A DNA stretch of 64,000 bases from an uncultured Holophagales bacterium (GTDB lineage Bacteria; Acidobacteriota; Thermoanaerobaculia; Multivoradales; UBA5704): assembly GCA_963842525.1 (NCBI GenBank), contig CAWJGT010000003.1, positions 512,001-576,000 on the forward strand, written 5' to 3'. Made by a program: the position numbers and the translations under genes. The notes beneath the pieces are model-generated. The model made no database searches. It had not been told where the DNA came from and saw only the letters and a list, made by a program, of their open reading frames with translations. The stretch's first letter is position 1. Each line of letters begins with the position of its first letter. Positions 43,683 through 52,600 of this stretch are shown here, in pieces.

Positions 43683-46600
43683 TCAGGCGTTCCGCGGCGG
43701 TGGTGGCAGGAAGCCGGTGTGGACGAAGAAGTCGAAGTAGACGGTGAGCAGATCGATATCGAGCTGCGGGCAGGTGATGCCGGAGCCCGCAATGGCCGCC
43801 CGGGTGTTGCGGTCGTCGAAGAGGACGACCTTCATCATGCCGGTACGTTGCTCGGCATTCGCTATCTCATTGAAGGCCTGATAGTTCGCCACGACGGGCG
43901 CGAATGGCGCCAGGGCGTTCTCGGAGCCCTCAGCGCCCTCGGCACCGCTGCGGATGACGTCGAGCATGTGTTGCACCCACTCCGCCAGCTCCATCCACTC
44001 GATCGGATAGCCGTATTCTTGCAGGTGCTCGAAGATATTCCGCAGGGTCGGCGGCTCGGGATGCGGGAACTGATACACGCGGTCCAGGTTTTCGTCCCGC
44101 AGGGAGATGTGGACGAGGGAGCGGGCGACGTAGTCCACCGGGGTGACGTCCGCGATCGAGTCGTCGTCCGGCGCCACGCCCACCTGGATGGAGCCCTTGA
44201 TGACGTTCCACACCATGTCGCGGGTGTTGCCGACGCCGGTCCGGCTGTGGCCGGCCAGCACTCCAGGACGGTAGATGGAGACCGGGATTCCGCGGGTACG
44301 GGCGAGCTGGCAGATGTGCTCGGAGACCCACTTGGTCTCGCCATAGCCGCCGAAGAGGCCGGACAGGCTGTCGCTCTCATCGTTCTCGTAGACCGTGGGG
44401 TCCTCCCGGAAACCGTACTCGACCTCGGGGATCGCGGTGATGCTGGAGACGTAATGCAGCGGCTTGGTGCGAATGCGGCCGGCCAGGCGCAGGGACTCGA
44501 CGGTGCCCAGCACGTTGGATGGCTTGAGGACCTTGTAGGGATAGGTGAAGTTGACCCAGGCGCCGCAATGGTAGACGGCGTCGACGCGGCCGGCGAGCGC
44601 ATCGAATTCCTCCGCAGAGAGGCCGAAGCGGGGCTCGCCCAGGTCGCCCGGCACGGCGACGAGGCGGCCGGCCATCTCCTCGGTCCACGCCTCGCGGGAC
44701 TGCAGGGAGTCGCGGAGGCGGAGGGTTGCCTGTTCCAAGGACTCGGCGCGCACCAGGCAGTGGATGCGCGCGCGGGTCTGGCGCACCAGCTCGTGGATCA
44801 GGAAGGCGCCGAAGAAGCCGGTGGCGCCGGTCAGGAACACCTCGAAAGGATCGCCGGAAGGCACGCGCGGGCCTTCGGCCCGGATCTCCGGATCGAGGGT
44901 CACCTCGGCGCGCAGGTCCACGGTCTCGCGGGCGGCAGCCAGGGCGGCGGCGCCTTCCTCGCGGAGCACCGCAATGGCCACCGCCAGCTCGCCCACGGTG
45001 GGCGCCTCGAAGAGGTCGCGCAGGGGGAAGTCGACGTCGAGCTCCCGGTGCATGCGAAGCAGGAGCTGCGGTGCCAACAGGGACTGGCCGCCGAGCGCGA
45101 AGAAGCTGTCGTGGACGCCGATGGGCGCGACGCCCAGCAGGTCCTGCCAGATCTCCACCAGGCGCTCCTCCGTCTCGTTGCGCGGCGCCGTGTAGGCGTT
45201 GCGCAGGTTGGCCGGCCGGGCGTGGCGCTCCAGGGAAGGAGCGGGAGCCGGAGGCGCGGCACCCGGCGCCTCGGCGGGCAGGGCCGCGCGGTCGATTGCC
45301 GCCCGATCGATCCGTTCCACCCAGTACCGTTTGCGCTCGAAGGGATAGGTCGGGAGCCACACTCTGTTGCGCCGCTCGTGCGCCGCGAAGCCTGCCCAGT
45401 CGATGGGAAGGCCGGCCAGCCAGAGGCGGGCGAGGCCGCCGAGGAGGAAGGTGGTGTCGGCCTGGCTCCGGTCGTAGGAGGGACGCAACGCAGGCAAGGC
45501 GACCGGGGCGGCGGCGCCGGCGAGCTGCAGGACGAGGGAGGTCAGAGCCAGCCCCGGCCCGACCTCGACGAGGACGCGGGAGGGTTCGACGAGCAGCTCG
45601 GCGATCGCGGCGCCGAAGCGAACGGGCTCGACGAGGTGCCGCACCCAGAAGTCGGGGTCCGTCGCCTGCTCGGGCGTGATCCAGGTGCCGGTGACGTTGG
45701 ACAGGTAGGGGATGGTGGGTGGCGCCAGGCGCATGCCGCGCAGCAGGGCGCCCAGGTCGTCGCGCAGCGGCTCCATCATCCGCGAATGGAAGGCGTGGGT
45801 GGTGGGCAGGCGTTTGGTGGCGACGCCGCGCGCTGCGAGGCCGGCGGCCAGGGCGTCGATGTCTTCCGGCGGGCCAGCCAGCACCGAGAAGGACGGACCA
45901 TTGACGGCGGCGAGAGAGAGGGGGCCGGTGGCGAGCTGCCGCGCCTCCTCCTCGGGCAGGGAGACCGAGAGCATGGTTCCCGCCGGGAGCTCGGCGATCC
46001 CGCGTGCGCGCCGCGCCACCAGACGCAGGGCATCCTCGAAGGAGAAGACGCCGGCCAGGCAGGCCGCCACGTACTCGCCGAGGCTGTAGCCGGCCAGGGC
46101 CTGCGGCCTGATCCCCCACTGCTCCAAGACCTTGGCCAGGGCATACTCGACGGCGAAGACCGCCGGCTGGGCGATCTCGGTGCAGTGGAGCGCCGGGGTC
46201 TCGGAGGGAGCTGCGGAAGAGGAGGGACGGCCGAGCAGGGCGCGCAGGTCCGCCTCGCCGCAGCCTGCGGCCTCCGCTTCGGGGCCGGTGCCTTGGGGGT
46301 AGAGCGCCGCCAGGAGGTCGATCCCCTGCTCGCGCAGCAGCTCGGCCGCCTGATCGAGGGCGGCGCGGAAGGCGGGCTCGTGCCGGTAAAGGCCGAGGCC
46401 CATGCCGGGGTAGTGGTCGCCGAGGCCCGGGAGGAGGAAAGTGATGGGCCGCTCGGCGTTCTCCTCGACGCTGCCCAGGAGGCGCCGCGGATCGCGGGCA
46501 TGCAGGGCGGAGATAGCGTCCTCGCGGTCGCGGCAGACCAGGGCCCGCCGGTGCGCGAAGGTGCGGCGGCCGGCCTGCAAGGTATGGACGACGTCCGCCA

Positions 46601-49600: not shown

Positions 49601-52600
49601 ACGGCAAGGACACCAAGGACGAGGACTCGCTTTCCTTGCGGTCCTTGTCGTCCTTGCTGTCCTTGATCGGGACCGCCCTCGAATCCACCAGCATGTAGTC
49701 GCGCCGCTCCTGCGGATACGCCGGGTCAACCGGCAGATACGCCGCTCCGGCTTGCAGCACGGCGAGCATGTGAACGATCAGGTTCGGTGTGCGCTCGGCG
49801 GTGAGGGCGACGATCGTGCCGGGGCCCACGCCCTGCTCGCGCAGGTGCCGGGCCTGGTGGCCCGCACGGTCCACCAGCTCGGCGTAGGTGAGGCGGACAC
49901 CGCCGGCTTCCAGGGCCACGGCGCCGGGCGTCCGGGCCGCTTGCTCCTCGATCAGGCGGTGCAGCAGGGCCTCGCCCGCGGGGACGGCCGGGCCGCGGCT
50001 CCAGGCCTGGAGCTGGCGCGCCTGCTCGTCGTCCGTGATCAGGGGGAGCTTCCAGACGCTCTGCTCGGGGTCGGCGACGGCGGCTTCCAGCAGGGTGTGG
50101 AGCTGGGCGGCGAAGCGCGCCATGGTCGCCTCGTCGAAGAGGGCGGCGCTGTACTGGAGGGTGCCGGCGATCTCGTCTGGCTCCTCGCCCAGCCAGAGCT
50201 CCAGGTCGTAGTCGACCTTCTCGCTCTCGACCGGCAGACCGCTCAGGCGGACTCCGGTGCTCAGCTCGGCCCGGGCCGGCGGGAAGTTCTGCAGCACCAG
50301 GAGCGCCTGGAACAGCGGCGTGCGCGACGGATCGCGCGGGAGCTGCAGGATCTGCAGCAGCTTCTCGAACGGGAGGTCGGCGTGCGCGTAGGCTTCCAGG
50401 GTGGTCTCGCGGATGCGGCCGAGGAGAGCGGCGAACGAGGGATTGCCCGCGAGGTCGGCGCGGTGCACCAGGGTGTCGATGAAGAAGCCGATGAGCCCTT
50501 CGAGCTCCCGCTGCGGCCGGTTGCCGCTGTAGGTGCCCACCGTCACGTCGTCCTGGCCGCTCCAGCGTGCCAGCAGGGTCTGGTAGCCGGCGAGGAGGAC
50601 CATGAACAGGGTCGTGCCACGCCGCCGGGCCAGCTCGTGGAGACGCCCGGCGAGCGGCTGCGGCAGGTGGATCGGCACCTTGCCGCCGCGGCTGCTGCGC
50701 ACGGGCGGGCGCGGCCGGTCGGTGGGCAGCTCCAGGAGCGGCGGGGCGCCGGCGAGCCGCCGGCGCCAGAAGCCCACCTGCCGCTCCAGCCTCTCCCCGG
50801 CCAGGCGCCGGCGCTGCCAGACCGCGTAGTCGGCGTACTGAATGGGCAGGGACGGCAGGGACGGCGCCCACCTCTGCGCGGCGGCTTCGTAGAGGGCGGC
50901 GACTTCCCGATGGATGATGCCCATGGACCAGCCGTCGGCGATGATGTGGTGGACGGTGAGCAGGAGGGCGTGGTCGTCGGCGGCGAGGCGCACGATGCGG
51001 GTGCGCAGGAGCGGCGCGGCGGCGAGGTCGAAGCCGGTGGAGGCCTCGGCTCGCACCTGCCGGTGCATCTCGACGTCCCGCGCGCTCTCCGGCAGGCCCG
51101 ACAGATCGATCACCGGCACCTCCAGCCGGACCTCCGGGAGCACGAGCTGGAGCGGCTCCTCCTCACCGGCCGCGAAGCGGGTGCGGAAGACCTCGTGCCG
51201 CCGGACCAGCTCCTGGAGAGCCGCGGCCAGGGTCGGGATGGCGAGCGGGCCTTCGATGCGCAGGGGGCTCGGGATGTTGTAGGCCGGGTTCCCAGGCTCC
51301 AGCCGGTCGAGGATCCACTCGCGGAGCTGCGAGAAGGAGACCGGAAAGCGGTTCTCCCCCGGCTGGCGGGGGAGGGCGAGGAGAGGATCGTCCACCGGCG
51401 CGCCGGCCTCCCCGAGCTCGGTGATCGCCCGCGCCAGCCCCTCGATCGTGGGCTGCTCGAAGACCAGGCGCAGCGGGAGGTCCACCTGGAAGGCGTCGCG
51501 GACCGCAGCCACCAGGCGGGTGGCGAGGAGGGAGTGGCCGCCCAGATCGAAGAAGTGGTCGGTCCCCCCGACCCGGTCGAGGCCGAGGAGCTCGGCCCAG
51601 AGGCCGGCGAGGATCTCCTCGGCCGGTGTCCGTGGCGCCAGGTAGCCATCCTCGGGGCGTCGCCCCTCCGGAGCTGGCAGGGCCTTGCGGTCCACCTTGC
51701 CATTCGGAGTGAGCGGCAGGGCGGCCAGCATCACGATGGCGGCGGGCACCATGTAGTCGGGCAGCCGCTCGCGCAGCGACCGGCGCAGCTCCTCGGCCGT
51801 GGCGTCCCCGGCCACATAGGCGACCAGCCGCCGGTCGCCGGATGCGTCCTCGCGCGCCACCACGGCCGCCTCGCGGACTCCAGGCAGCGCCAGGAGCACC
51901 GACTCGATCTCCCCCAGCTCGATGCGGAAGCCGCGGATCTTGACCTGGTGATCGATCCGGCCGAGGTATTCCACCTCGCCGTGGGGGAGGAAACGTCCCA
52001 GGTCTCCCGACCGGTAGAGCCGCGCGCCGCCGCCCGCCGGGTCGGGGACGAAGCGTTCTGCGGTCAGCTCCGGCCGGCCGAGATAGCCCCGCGCCAGCCC
52101 CGCGCCGCCGACCACCAGCTCGCCCGGCACTCCGATGGGCACCGGCTGCAGGCGTGGGTCCATCACGGCGAGAGACAGGCCGGGGATGGGGATGCCGATG
52201 ACGCTGCGCCGCTCGCCCCGGGCGTCCGCGGCGCGCAGCGGCCGGACGGTGACGTGCACCGTCGTCTCGGTGATCCCGTACATGTTGACCAGCCGCGGCC
52301 GAGCGTCGCCGTGGCGGGCGAGCCAGGGGGCCAGAGCCGCCGGGTCCAGGGCTTCGCCGCCGAAGATCACCAGCCGCAGATCGGCCGCGCCGCCGCGGCG
52401 CTCCTCGTCCTCCTGCGCGAGCTGGGCGAAGGCCGAGGGGGTCTGGTTGAGCACCGTCACCCGCTCGCGGGCCAGCAGGTCGAGGAACAGCTCGGGGGAG
52501 CGGCTCACCTCGTGGGGCACGATCACCAGGCGGCCGCCGTAGAGCAGCGCTCCCCAGATCTCCCAGACCGAAAAGTCGAAGGCGTAGGAGTGGAACAGGG

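Follow-up and report, generated by a model that had tools for sequence, protein, structure and literature searches.

The locus described here raises the question of how a non-ribosomal peptide synthetase (NRPS) assembly line releases its product when a polyketide synthase (PKS) module lacking a ketoreductase (KR) leads directly into a thioester reductase (R). The DNA analysed, referred to as the window, is 64,000 nucleotides long and corresponds to positions 512001-576000 of contig CAWJGT010000003.1 (here C3) of an uncultured Holophagales bacterium, the genome of which is 9.95 Mb in 34 contigs with approximately 70 % G+C. A minus-strand line with 19 adenylation (A) domains and one PKS module ends in the window, and an earlier note on this DNA had drawn attention to its terminus. 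With a probability of roughly 0.6, this terminus is a functional chain-ending cassette of a hybrid NRPS-PKS line, which would add lysine, extend it with one malonyl unit whose ketone is kept, and release the chain reductively.

Domain order and catalytic motifs

The minus-strand open reading frame (ORF) that includes the cassette ends at window position 43683 (stop codon 43683-43685) and extends beyond the window edge. It spans C3:555686-583474 and encodes 9263 aa without a stop. The earlier note had assigned the terminus to 43683-49960, of which the 43683 end is right; 49960 is one base out of frame, though close to where the last A domain starts (49949).

Pfam matches in the last 2292 aa are to Condensation, AMP-binding, AMP-binding_C, PP-binding (two stretches), the N- and C-terminal ketoacyl-synt families, KAsynt_C_assoc, Acyl_transf_1 and NAD_binding_4, and no match to a KR (PF08659), dehydratase (DH), enoylreductase (ER), methyltransferase (MT) or thioesterase (TE) was found there at E<=1e-5. 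When phmmer was used with the window's own domains as seeds to define the boundaries, the end of the ORF read C(6711-7151)-A(7176-7661)-T(7682-7744)-KS(7820-8197)-AT(8345-8687)-T(8767-8836)-R(8877-9263), where C is a condensation, T a carrier, KS a ketosynthase and AT an acyltransferase domain and the numbers are residues of the 9263-aa ORF. The gaps between T and KS (approximately 75 aa) and between AT and T (approximately 80 aa) are so short that they leave no room for a hidden KR, DH or MT. Both the order A-T-KS-AT-T-R and the lack of KR, MT and TE had been claimed in the earlier note, and both are borne out.

The cassette domains lie on the minus strand of the window as follows. The last NRPS module starts with a C domain (50022-51344; Pfam Condensation) that is LCL-like by score (phmmer, 425 bits against the LCL-type seed), followed by an A domain (48492-49949; Pfam AMP-binding, 1.1e-75) with a Lys-type code read by alignment, and by the peptidyl carrier T1 (48243-48431), identified by Pfam, phmmer and its motif. 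A linker from T1 to the KS (48018-48242), defined by a three-frame comparison of the junction and by ORF layouts, is read through in frame. The PKS module consists of the KS (46884-48017; ketoacyl-synt, PF00109, 3.8e-69, and Ketoacyl-synt_C, PF02801, 3.9e-41), the AT (45414-46442; Acyl_transf_1, PF00698, 6e-46) and the second carrier, T2 (44967-45176), which has a PCP-like motif and contains the best PF00550 stretch (residues 1799-1860 of the 2292-aa piece). The terminal R domain (43686-44846; NAD_binding_4, PF07993, 5.1e-66) is of the short-chain dehydrogenase/reductase (SDR) type. The last A domain also carries a charged low-complexity insert (DSKDDKDRKESESSS; KDSKDDKDRKESESSSLVSLPSLL) just ahead of the SGSTG core motif, at 48.9-49.2 kb on the minus strand.

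All catalytic residues expected of a minimal extension module are present in the translation. The KS has its Cys/His/His set in TACSTS, EAHGSGT and NVGHLE, and the AT has the GxSxG serine in GYSLGE together with THAFHS, in agreement with the intact KS triad and AT HAFH claimed earlier. The phosphopantetheine serines are found in both carriers (LGGHSL in T1, LGGQSL in T2). Thus, KS-AT-carrier is complete and the beta-processing domains (KR, DH, ER and MT) are absent. The HAFH motif marks malonyl-type ATs, and the extender is predicted to be malonyl. The R domain contains the Rossmann motif TGxxGxxG (TGATGFFG) and a Tyr-x3-Lys motif (YGETK).

These motifs are retained in the wider family. Searching a large protein collection with KS-AT-T-R gave 120 listed matches, 80 of which had the same Pfam architecture with 48-80 % identity; these 80 were chosen by length (1250-1650 aa) and aligned with the window in 81 rows. 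TACSTS was found in 68/81 rows, and the KS Cys was kept in each of the variants listed. HAFH was present in 78 of the 80 rows listed, the T2 motif was LGGHSL in 57/81, and the Tyr-Lys motif of the reductase (Y..xK) was in all variants listed. Pairwise dN/dS (nonsynonymous to synonymous substitution ratio) against three relatives was 0.20-0.64 in every domain, with the lowest figures against a paralogue on contig C18 in T1, KS (0.25) and AT (0.23), and all are rough because strong codon bias at third positions (GC3) compresses dS. The cassette domains thus appear to be under purifying selection.

Specificity and conservation of the cassette

Ten-residue specificity codes were read by aligning all of the A domains of the region. 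The code of the last A domain is DTEDIGTIVK, as the earlier note had it, and each of the three preceding A domains has DFWNIGMVHK, which is the textbook Thr code. The three Thr-type modules (51669-60890, minus strand; phmmer and code alignment) include an epimerase-like domain in the first: after its A domain come, in order, a C-like domain with a weak score and a C domain that scores intermediately. The motif in the weak-scoring domain is presumably that of an E domain, and the arrangement presumably the E plus DCL pattern. The earlier proposal that the chain ends D-Thr-Thr-Thr-X agrees with these codes and this arrangement.

The code of the last A domain differs from that of ScoA, an NRPS of the isonitrile-lipopeptide type, at two of ten positions, both V/I swaps. 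ScoA has DTEDVGTVVK and MmaA and Rv0101 have DIEDVGSVVK, and the authors predict Lys for all three (bioRxiv 10.1101/121228), so that the ScoA assignment is itself a prediction. This preprint was the only match for DTEDIGTIVK-like codes in a literature search with the code string. The last residue is therefore most likely basic, as claimed previously (Lys, Orn or Arg), and Lys is the best call on sequence grounds since only two V/I changes separate the codes; because the ScoA reference is itself predicted, the residue may instead be Orn, Arg or beta-Lys.

This ending recurs and is not a one-off, a point that the earlier note does not make. The same genome contains a second copy on contig C18, in which the domains are divided between a C-A-T gene and a stand-alone KS-AT-T-R gene. 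This copy shares the A code and has an R domain at 68 % identity; the modules upstream differ. This second copy is at L005:8527-16327 (contig C18) and L172:11935-13449, and a serine recombinase gene adjoins it. In all six loci where R is at least 48 % identical and upstream DNA is available, the A code is DTE[D/N][I/V]GTIVK: DTEDIGTIVK in the window, C18, L011 (an Acidobacteriota metagenome-assembled genome, MAG), L184 (genome G659) and L185 (G723), and DTENVGTIVK in L171 (G176). A seventh locus with R at this level, L189, was left out of the count as the end of a contig cuts it. In a quick tree built from 53 A domains, the six from the cassettes group as a single clade (SH-aLRT 99). The nearest neighbours of this clade are other Lys-like A domains, including one directly before R in G675, a genome of the same order. 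There, a 5900-aa NRPS (L188:1322-19021, contig C13) ends C-A-T-R with the code DTEDVGTVVK, identical to that of ScoA, and no PKS insert. The modules upstream of the cassette vary between loci, and it therefore behaves as a portable ending. The Lys-C2-reductase ending is, from these comparisons, apparently co-inherited, recurring in Acidobacteriota-like genomes.

Where named, the homologues of KS-AT-T-R are mostly from Thermoanaerobaculia or Acidobacteria MAGs, with a few from cyanobacteria. The reductase was found in 5/401 sampled genomes of the phylum (E<=1e-60) and in 7/401 genomes of the class (E<=1e-80; including the source genome, G000), and the cassette is therefore sporadic. A scan of genome contigs for R domains gave 80 loci, among which a PKS module preceded R only in L011, L050, L061 and L057 (the last with an AT-to-T gap of approximately 1.5 kb); the remainder were plain A-T-R or multi-module PKS. 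At least two close matches (L091 and L092) are on metagenome contigs too short to include the upstream module. A homologue search with the full A-T-KS-AT-T-R revealed no new R-fused forms, and KR-containing PKSs dominated the results. Proteins P0093, P0096 and P0107 were rejected as examples of this architecture, as they are KS-AT-T-C-A-T-R with a Cys-type code. Identity is 47-49 % for three relatives from cyanobacteria (P0094, P0113 and P0118). Scanning 401 genomes from the cyanobacterial phylum at E<=1e-150 found nothing, which is uninformative because just one or two candidates per genome were scored.

The loci differ at the junction between T1 and KS, which was compared in three frames for the window, C18, L011 and L184, and by ORF layout for L171 and L185. 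It is fused in frame in the window, and the other five have a stop codon and a new Met; in C18 the upstream protein ends '...QAMERLRRSR' and the next begins 'MSHQDD...'. Whether the fusion is natural or reflects a further indel, the predicted chemistry is unaffected.

Release chemistry and alternative readings

The closest relative of the R domain among solved structures is that of MxaA (PDB 4u7w; E 2.3e-90, residues 15-401, approximately 387 residues aligned). The second closest is PDB 8v1x (E 4e-66, approximately 387 residues aligned), identified in a preprint as SCO6273, the terminal reductase (TR) of the coelimycin synthase CpkC. Both alignments share TGATGF.G and GGY...KW. A non-reductive R* domain (Dieckmann cyclase) was considered and rejected: the R* domains of fungal PKS-NRPSs are defined by loss of the SDR catalytic Tyr, and this residue is present here and in all family variants listed. 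The terminal domain of PsoA is a weak PDB match (E 1.3e-14). The R domain is apparently an ordinary, competent thioester reductase.

Given these domains, we propose that the last NRPS module activates a basic residue, likeliest L-lysine, and couples it to the peptide, which ends in Thr-Thr-Thr. The AT would load malonyl onto the second carrier, and the KS would condense the peptidyl-Lys thioester with it to give peptidyl-Lys-CO-CH2-CO-S-carrier, in which the beta-ketone would stay because there is no KR, DH, ER or MT. The MxaA-like SDR reductase, using NAD(P)H, would then cleave the thioester to a gamma-amino-beta-keto aldehyde, so that the released end would be 4-acylamino-8-amino-3-oxo-octanal, or the 1-ol after a second hydride transfer. 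Overall, the line would make a peptide of 19 residues that is N-acylated and extended by C2.

As the earlier note proposed and the intact reductase motifs suggest, a working reductase should leave the chain ending ...Thr-Thr-Thr-Lys-CO-CH2-CHO or -CH2OH. What did not survive from that note is the likeness to leupeptin. A basic residue near a reduced C-terminus is common to both, but in leupeptin-type inhibitors the aldehyde is the basic residue's own carbonyl, whereas here a complete KS-AT-T stands between the Lys module and R and would place a ketone and a methylene between the Lys alpha-carbon and the reduced carbon, with the aldehyde two carbons on. The product would not be a leupeptin-type aminoaldehyde, and a protease as its target is speculation. 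The observation itself, the domain order, the basic residue and the reductive end all hold.

Known systems share parts of this arrangement. MxaA of the myxalamid pathway (PDB 4U7W and 4W4T) also has a C-terminal R after a PCP-like carrier and releases its chain by hydride transfer. In MxaA, R reportedly follows an NRPS (Ala) module directly and converts an aminoacyl thioester to an amino alcohol, whereas here it follows a KR-less PKS module and its substrate would be a beta-ketoacyl thioester. CpkC (SCO6273) likewise has a reductase ending a type I PKS module. It is said to be a pure PKS with a reduced chain, the aldehyde of which is handed to an aminotransferase, and no conserved aminotransferase adjoins the cassette here. 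In the ScoA, MmaA and Rv0101 NRPSs, which have the Lys-type code nearly identical in ScoA, release is said to be reductive and by an R domain; these are one- or two-module actinobacterial NRPSs and have no PKS module.

Two further systems include a malonyl-extending PKS module. The fungal swainsonine synthase SwnK loads an amino acid, extends it once with malonyl and releases it with a terminal reductase, and the released carbonyl is said to condense with the nitrogen of the substrate itself, reportedly pipecolate. It differs in being fungal, in having a KR, and in being a single stand-alone module without an upstream peptide that acts on pipecolate rather than, as predicted here, peptidyl-lysine. 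Its domain order is reported as A-T-KS-AT-KR-ACP-R (PMC8403587). OrdC, from the ord cluster of Vibrio ordalii, is described as following a short NRPS with a malonyl-extending KS-AT-KR-T-R, for which the authors predict a terminal aldehyde or alcohol (bioRxiv 10.1101/2025.06.06.656871). It resembles the cassette, by description and not by sequence, in combining an NRPS, one malonyl-extending PKS module and a terminal reductase. As described there, it differs in its KR (a beta-hydroxyl is predicted), its last residue (Leu/Ile), its tripeptide product, and the methyltransferase and self-resistance deformylase in the cluster. A KR between AT and carrier, as in SwnK and OrdC, is absent here. The cassette is unlike MxaA, CpkC, OrdC, SwnK and ScoA in that its reductase is preceded by both a fixed Lys module and a PKS module without a KR. 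Literature searches, which left most subscription journals outside their reach, found no characterised pathway with this ending, in line with the lack of a match stated earlier. The strings KS-AT-ACP-R and KS-AT-T-R had no literature match, and KS-AT-KR-ACP-R variants led only to a mention of SwnK.

Several points weigh against the reading of a Lys-malonyl-reductase cassette. The substrate calls are predictions from a ten-residue code and the HAFH rule, and the sole published code found for comparison is itself a prediction. In more distant KS-AT-T-R loci (R 39 % identical), the preceding A domains are Ala-type and Gly-type, and Lys is therefore not obligatory for the architecture. The A-domain tree came from a quick, unfinished search, and the compression of dS blurs the selection estimates. 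Two-electron and four-electron reduction cannot be told apart in the sequence; both MxaA (reportedly alcohol-forming) and the CpkC TR (reportedly aldehyde-forming) are close. Finally, 18 frame junctions lie inside A and C domains of the lines on both strands (C3:474-627 kb), and are considered below.

Among the alternatives, a real possibility, although the odds lean against it, is that R carries out a four-electron reduction to an open-chain, Lys-derived beta-keto alcohol. In a cationic lipopeptide, such an end would carry no negative charge at the C-terminus and would withstand carboxypeptidases. Amino-alcohol ends play this role in other linear peptides. The closest structure is that of MxaA, which reportedly carries reduction through to the alcohol, the Lys-coded ScoA-type NRPSs likewise end in R, and the C-A(DTEDVGTVVK)-T-R ending of G675 indicates that reduced Lys ends without a PKS module occur in the class. 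However, the CpkC TR, which is said to release an aldehyde, is also close, and nothing in the sequence separates the two kinds of reductase.

With the same enzymology, the conserved Lys might instead serve self-cyclisation, with its epsilon-amine attacking the beta-ketone once the aldehyde has been released, so that a cyclic imine with a seven-membered ring or a push-pull enaminone would form. We regard such cyclisation with the side-chain amine, which the earlier note also raised, as doubtful, though plausible chemically. 1,3-Dicarbonyls and primary amines condense readily, the strict conservation of the Lys-type code in 6/6 close cassettes despite differing upstream peptides would fit, and there is no conserved downstream tailoring gene able to process carbonyls. 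However, seven-membered closure is disfavoured relative to five- or six-membered, the relatives with Ala or Gly ahead of KS-AT-T-R have no side-chain amine, reduction to an alcohol (as is said of MxaA) would remove the driving enaminone, and positive charge alone may explain why Lys is retained; the proposal is an inference. If true, the C-terminus would carry a heterocycle of a new kind or a warhead in masked form. The conserved code suggests that the side chain matters, either by attacking the 1,3-dicarbonyl as a nucleophile or by providing a cationic end. A bolder version, which we hold more tentatively still, is that the co-inherited Lys-A/T/KS/AT/T/R block is a dedicated C-terminus machine, whose beta-keto aldehyde would be captured by the Lys epsilon-amine (seven-membered imine or enaminone) or act as an amine-reactive 1,3-dicarbonyl warhead on lipopeptides of approximately 19 residues made by uncultured soil Acidobacteriota.

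It is unlikely that the A domain loads another basic residue, namely ornithine, arginine, beta-lysine or hydroxylated lysine. The acidic code positions 239 and 278 would suit any cationic side chain, one published code alone was found for comparison, and a beta-lysine code is similar to DTEDIGTIVK. Against this, Asp235, expected for alpha-amino acids, is kept, and the product of the ScoA pathway presumably contains Lys. The matching published code, 8/10 identical with V/I swaps at the rest, is a Lys prediction.

A less probable alternative again is that the cluster is decaying, with real upstream frame breaks and no full-length product in this organism. In its favour, approximately 10 of the 18 junctions fall upstream of the 9263-aa ORF in the minus-strand line; five are in the plus-strand genes of the window (17404-17552, 29723-29739, 30264-30274, 31660-31676 and 36227-36243). 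However, eight of the 18 are no more than 15 bases from a GAAGCTC or GAGCTTC, compared with 73 such sites in 153 kb. Four of the five sites inspected (17.4, 29.7, 31.7 and 36.2 kb) look like GAGCTC into which an additional A has been inserted, the exception being that at 30.26 kb, and the motifs of relatives imply GAGCTC where the plus-strand sites of the window carry GAAGCTC. Because of this clustering, the breaks are probably systematic base-calling or polishing errors of long reads in repeated modules. The terminal ORF, 27.8 kb in length, is itself intact and appears to be under purifying selection.

The last alternative, that the PKS module is dead or skipped and R releases peptidyl-lysinal or -lysinol directly, was named in the earlier note as a way to refute it and has a direct Lys-A-T-R ending in one relative (L188) in its favour, but is scarcely credible: the 81-row family alignment retains the catalytic residues of the KS (Cys/His/His), the serine and HAFH of the AT and the serine of T2, dN/dS against three relatives is 0.2-0.6 in every domain, with KS and AT among the lowest against the paralogue, the block is co-inherited, and R follows T2, not T1.

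The assembly line, its surroundings and what the ending may mean

The minus-strand line starts with a FAAL-like AMP-binding/DIP2-like/ACP protein (L175:12903-14240; C3:624903-626240), which implies an N-acylated (lipo)peptide. Within the line, an A domain whose code, DLFNFSLVWK, is Cys-like (C3:577805-579241; L004:1805-3241) comes after a C-type domain that scores weakly and shares 28 % identity with the LCL seed (C3:579302-580666; L004:3302-4666), and the two may form a heterocyclisation module. Tandem C-type domains are found at a gene boundary (C3:588933-591667; L004:12933-15667), the first high-scoring and LCL-like and the second weak and located before the next A domain.

No conserved tailoring gene adjoining the cassette was found when the loci were compared. 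In the window, a MacB-type permease (MacB_PCD plus FtsX; 40697-43297, plus strand) lies between two convergent assembly lines, and in G176 two similar MacB-type permease genes follow the cassette (L176:1228-6133). Other neighbours are a CarboxypepD_reg protein (L011), a recombinase (C18), a fatty-acid hydroxylase and an RND pump (L189), an opposite-strand aminotransferase (L184) and a glyoxalase-like ORF (L185). The last protein of the convergent line (37002-40886, plus strand) is A-T-TE fused to DUF6625 (E 4.5e-58), which is unusual as an extension at the C-terminus of a thioesterase.

Three soil-metagenome DNA runs contain 5-6 % of the sampled words, and no RNA run is listed among the matching ones. 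Their contigs match in short pieces that are 90-99 % alike, a few of them nearly identical, and none bridges a frame-break site or the T-to-KS junction. Over 43679-47584, pieces of 150-300 bases have 1-4 differences to the cassette, and the organism or a near relative therefore occurs in soils.

Reductive release and extension by a single malonyl are each known already. What we did not find as a studied case is a KR-less PKS module that separates a fixed Lys module from a reductase and is passed on with them as a block in several Acidobacteriota-like genomes. As judged from sequence, this ending is a real and conserved variant of reductive off-loading in hybrid NRPS-PKS lines of soil Acidobacteriota-like bacteria. 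It is compact, at approximately 2100 aa, or a 1450-aa stand-alone KS-AT-T-R with one NRPS module, and reconstitution in vitro or use as a portable off-loading unit for engineered assembly lines is conceivable. It predicts a defined C-terminal chemistry, a gamma-amino-beta-keto aldehyde or alcohol that would possibly self-cyclise, on large lipopeptides of a phylum that has hardly been explored for natural products, and it probably gives these long lipopeptides an unusual reactive or uncharged tail.

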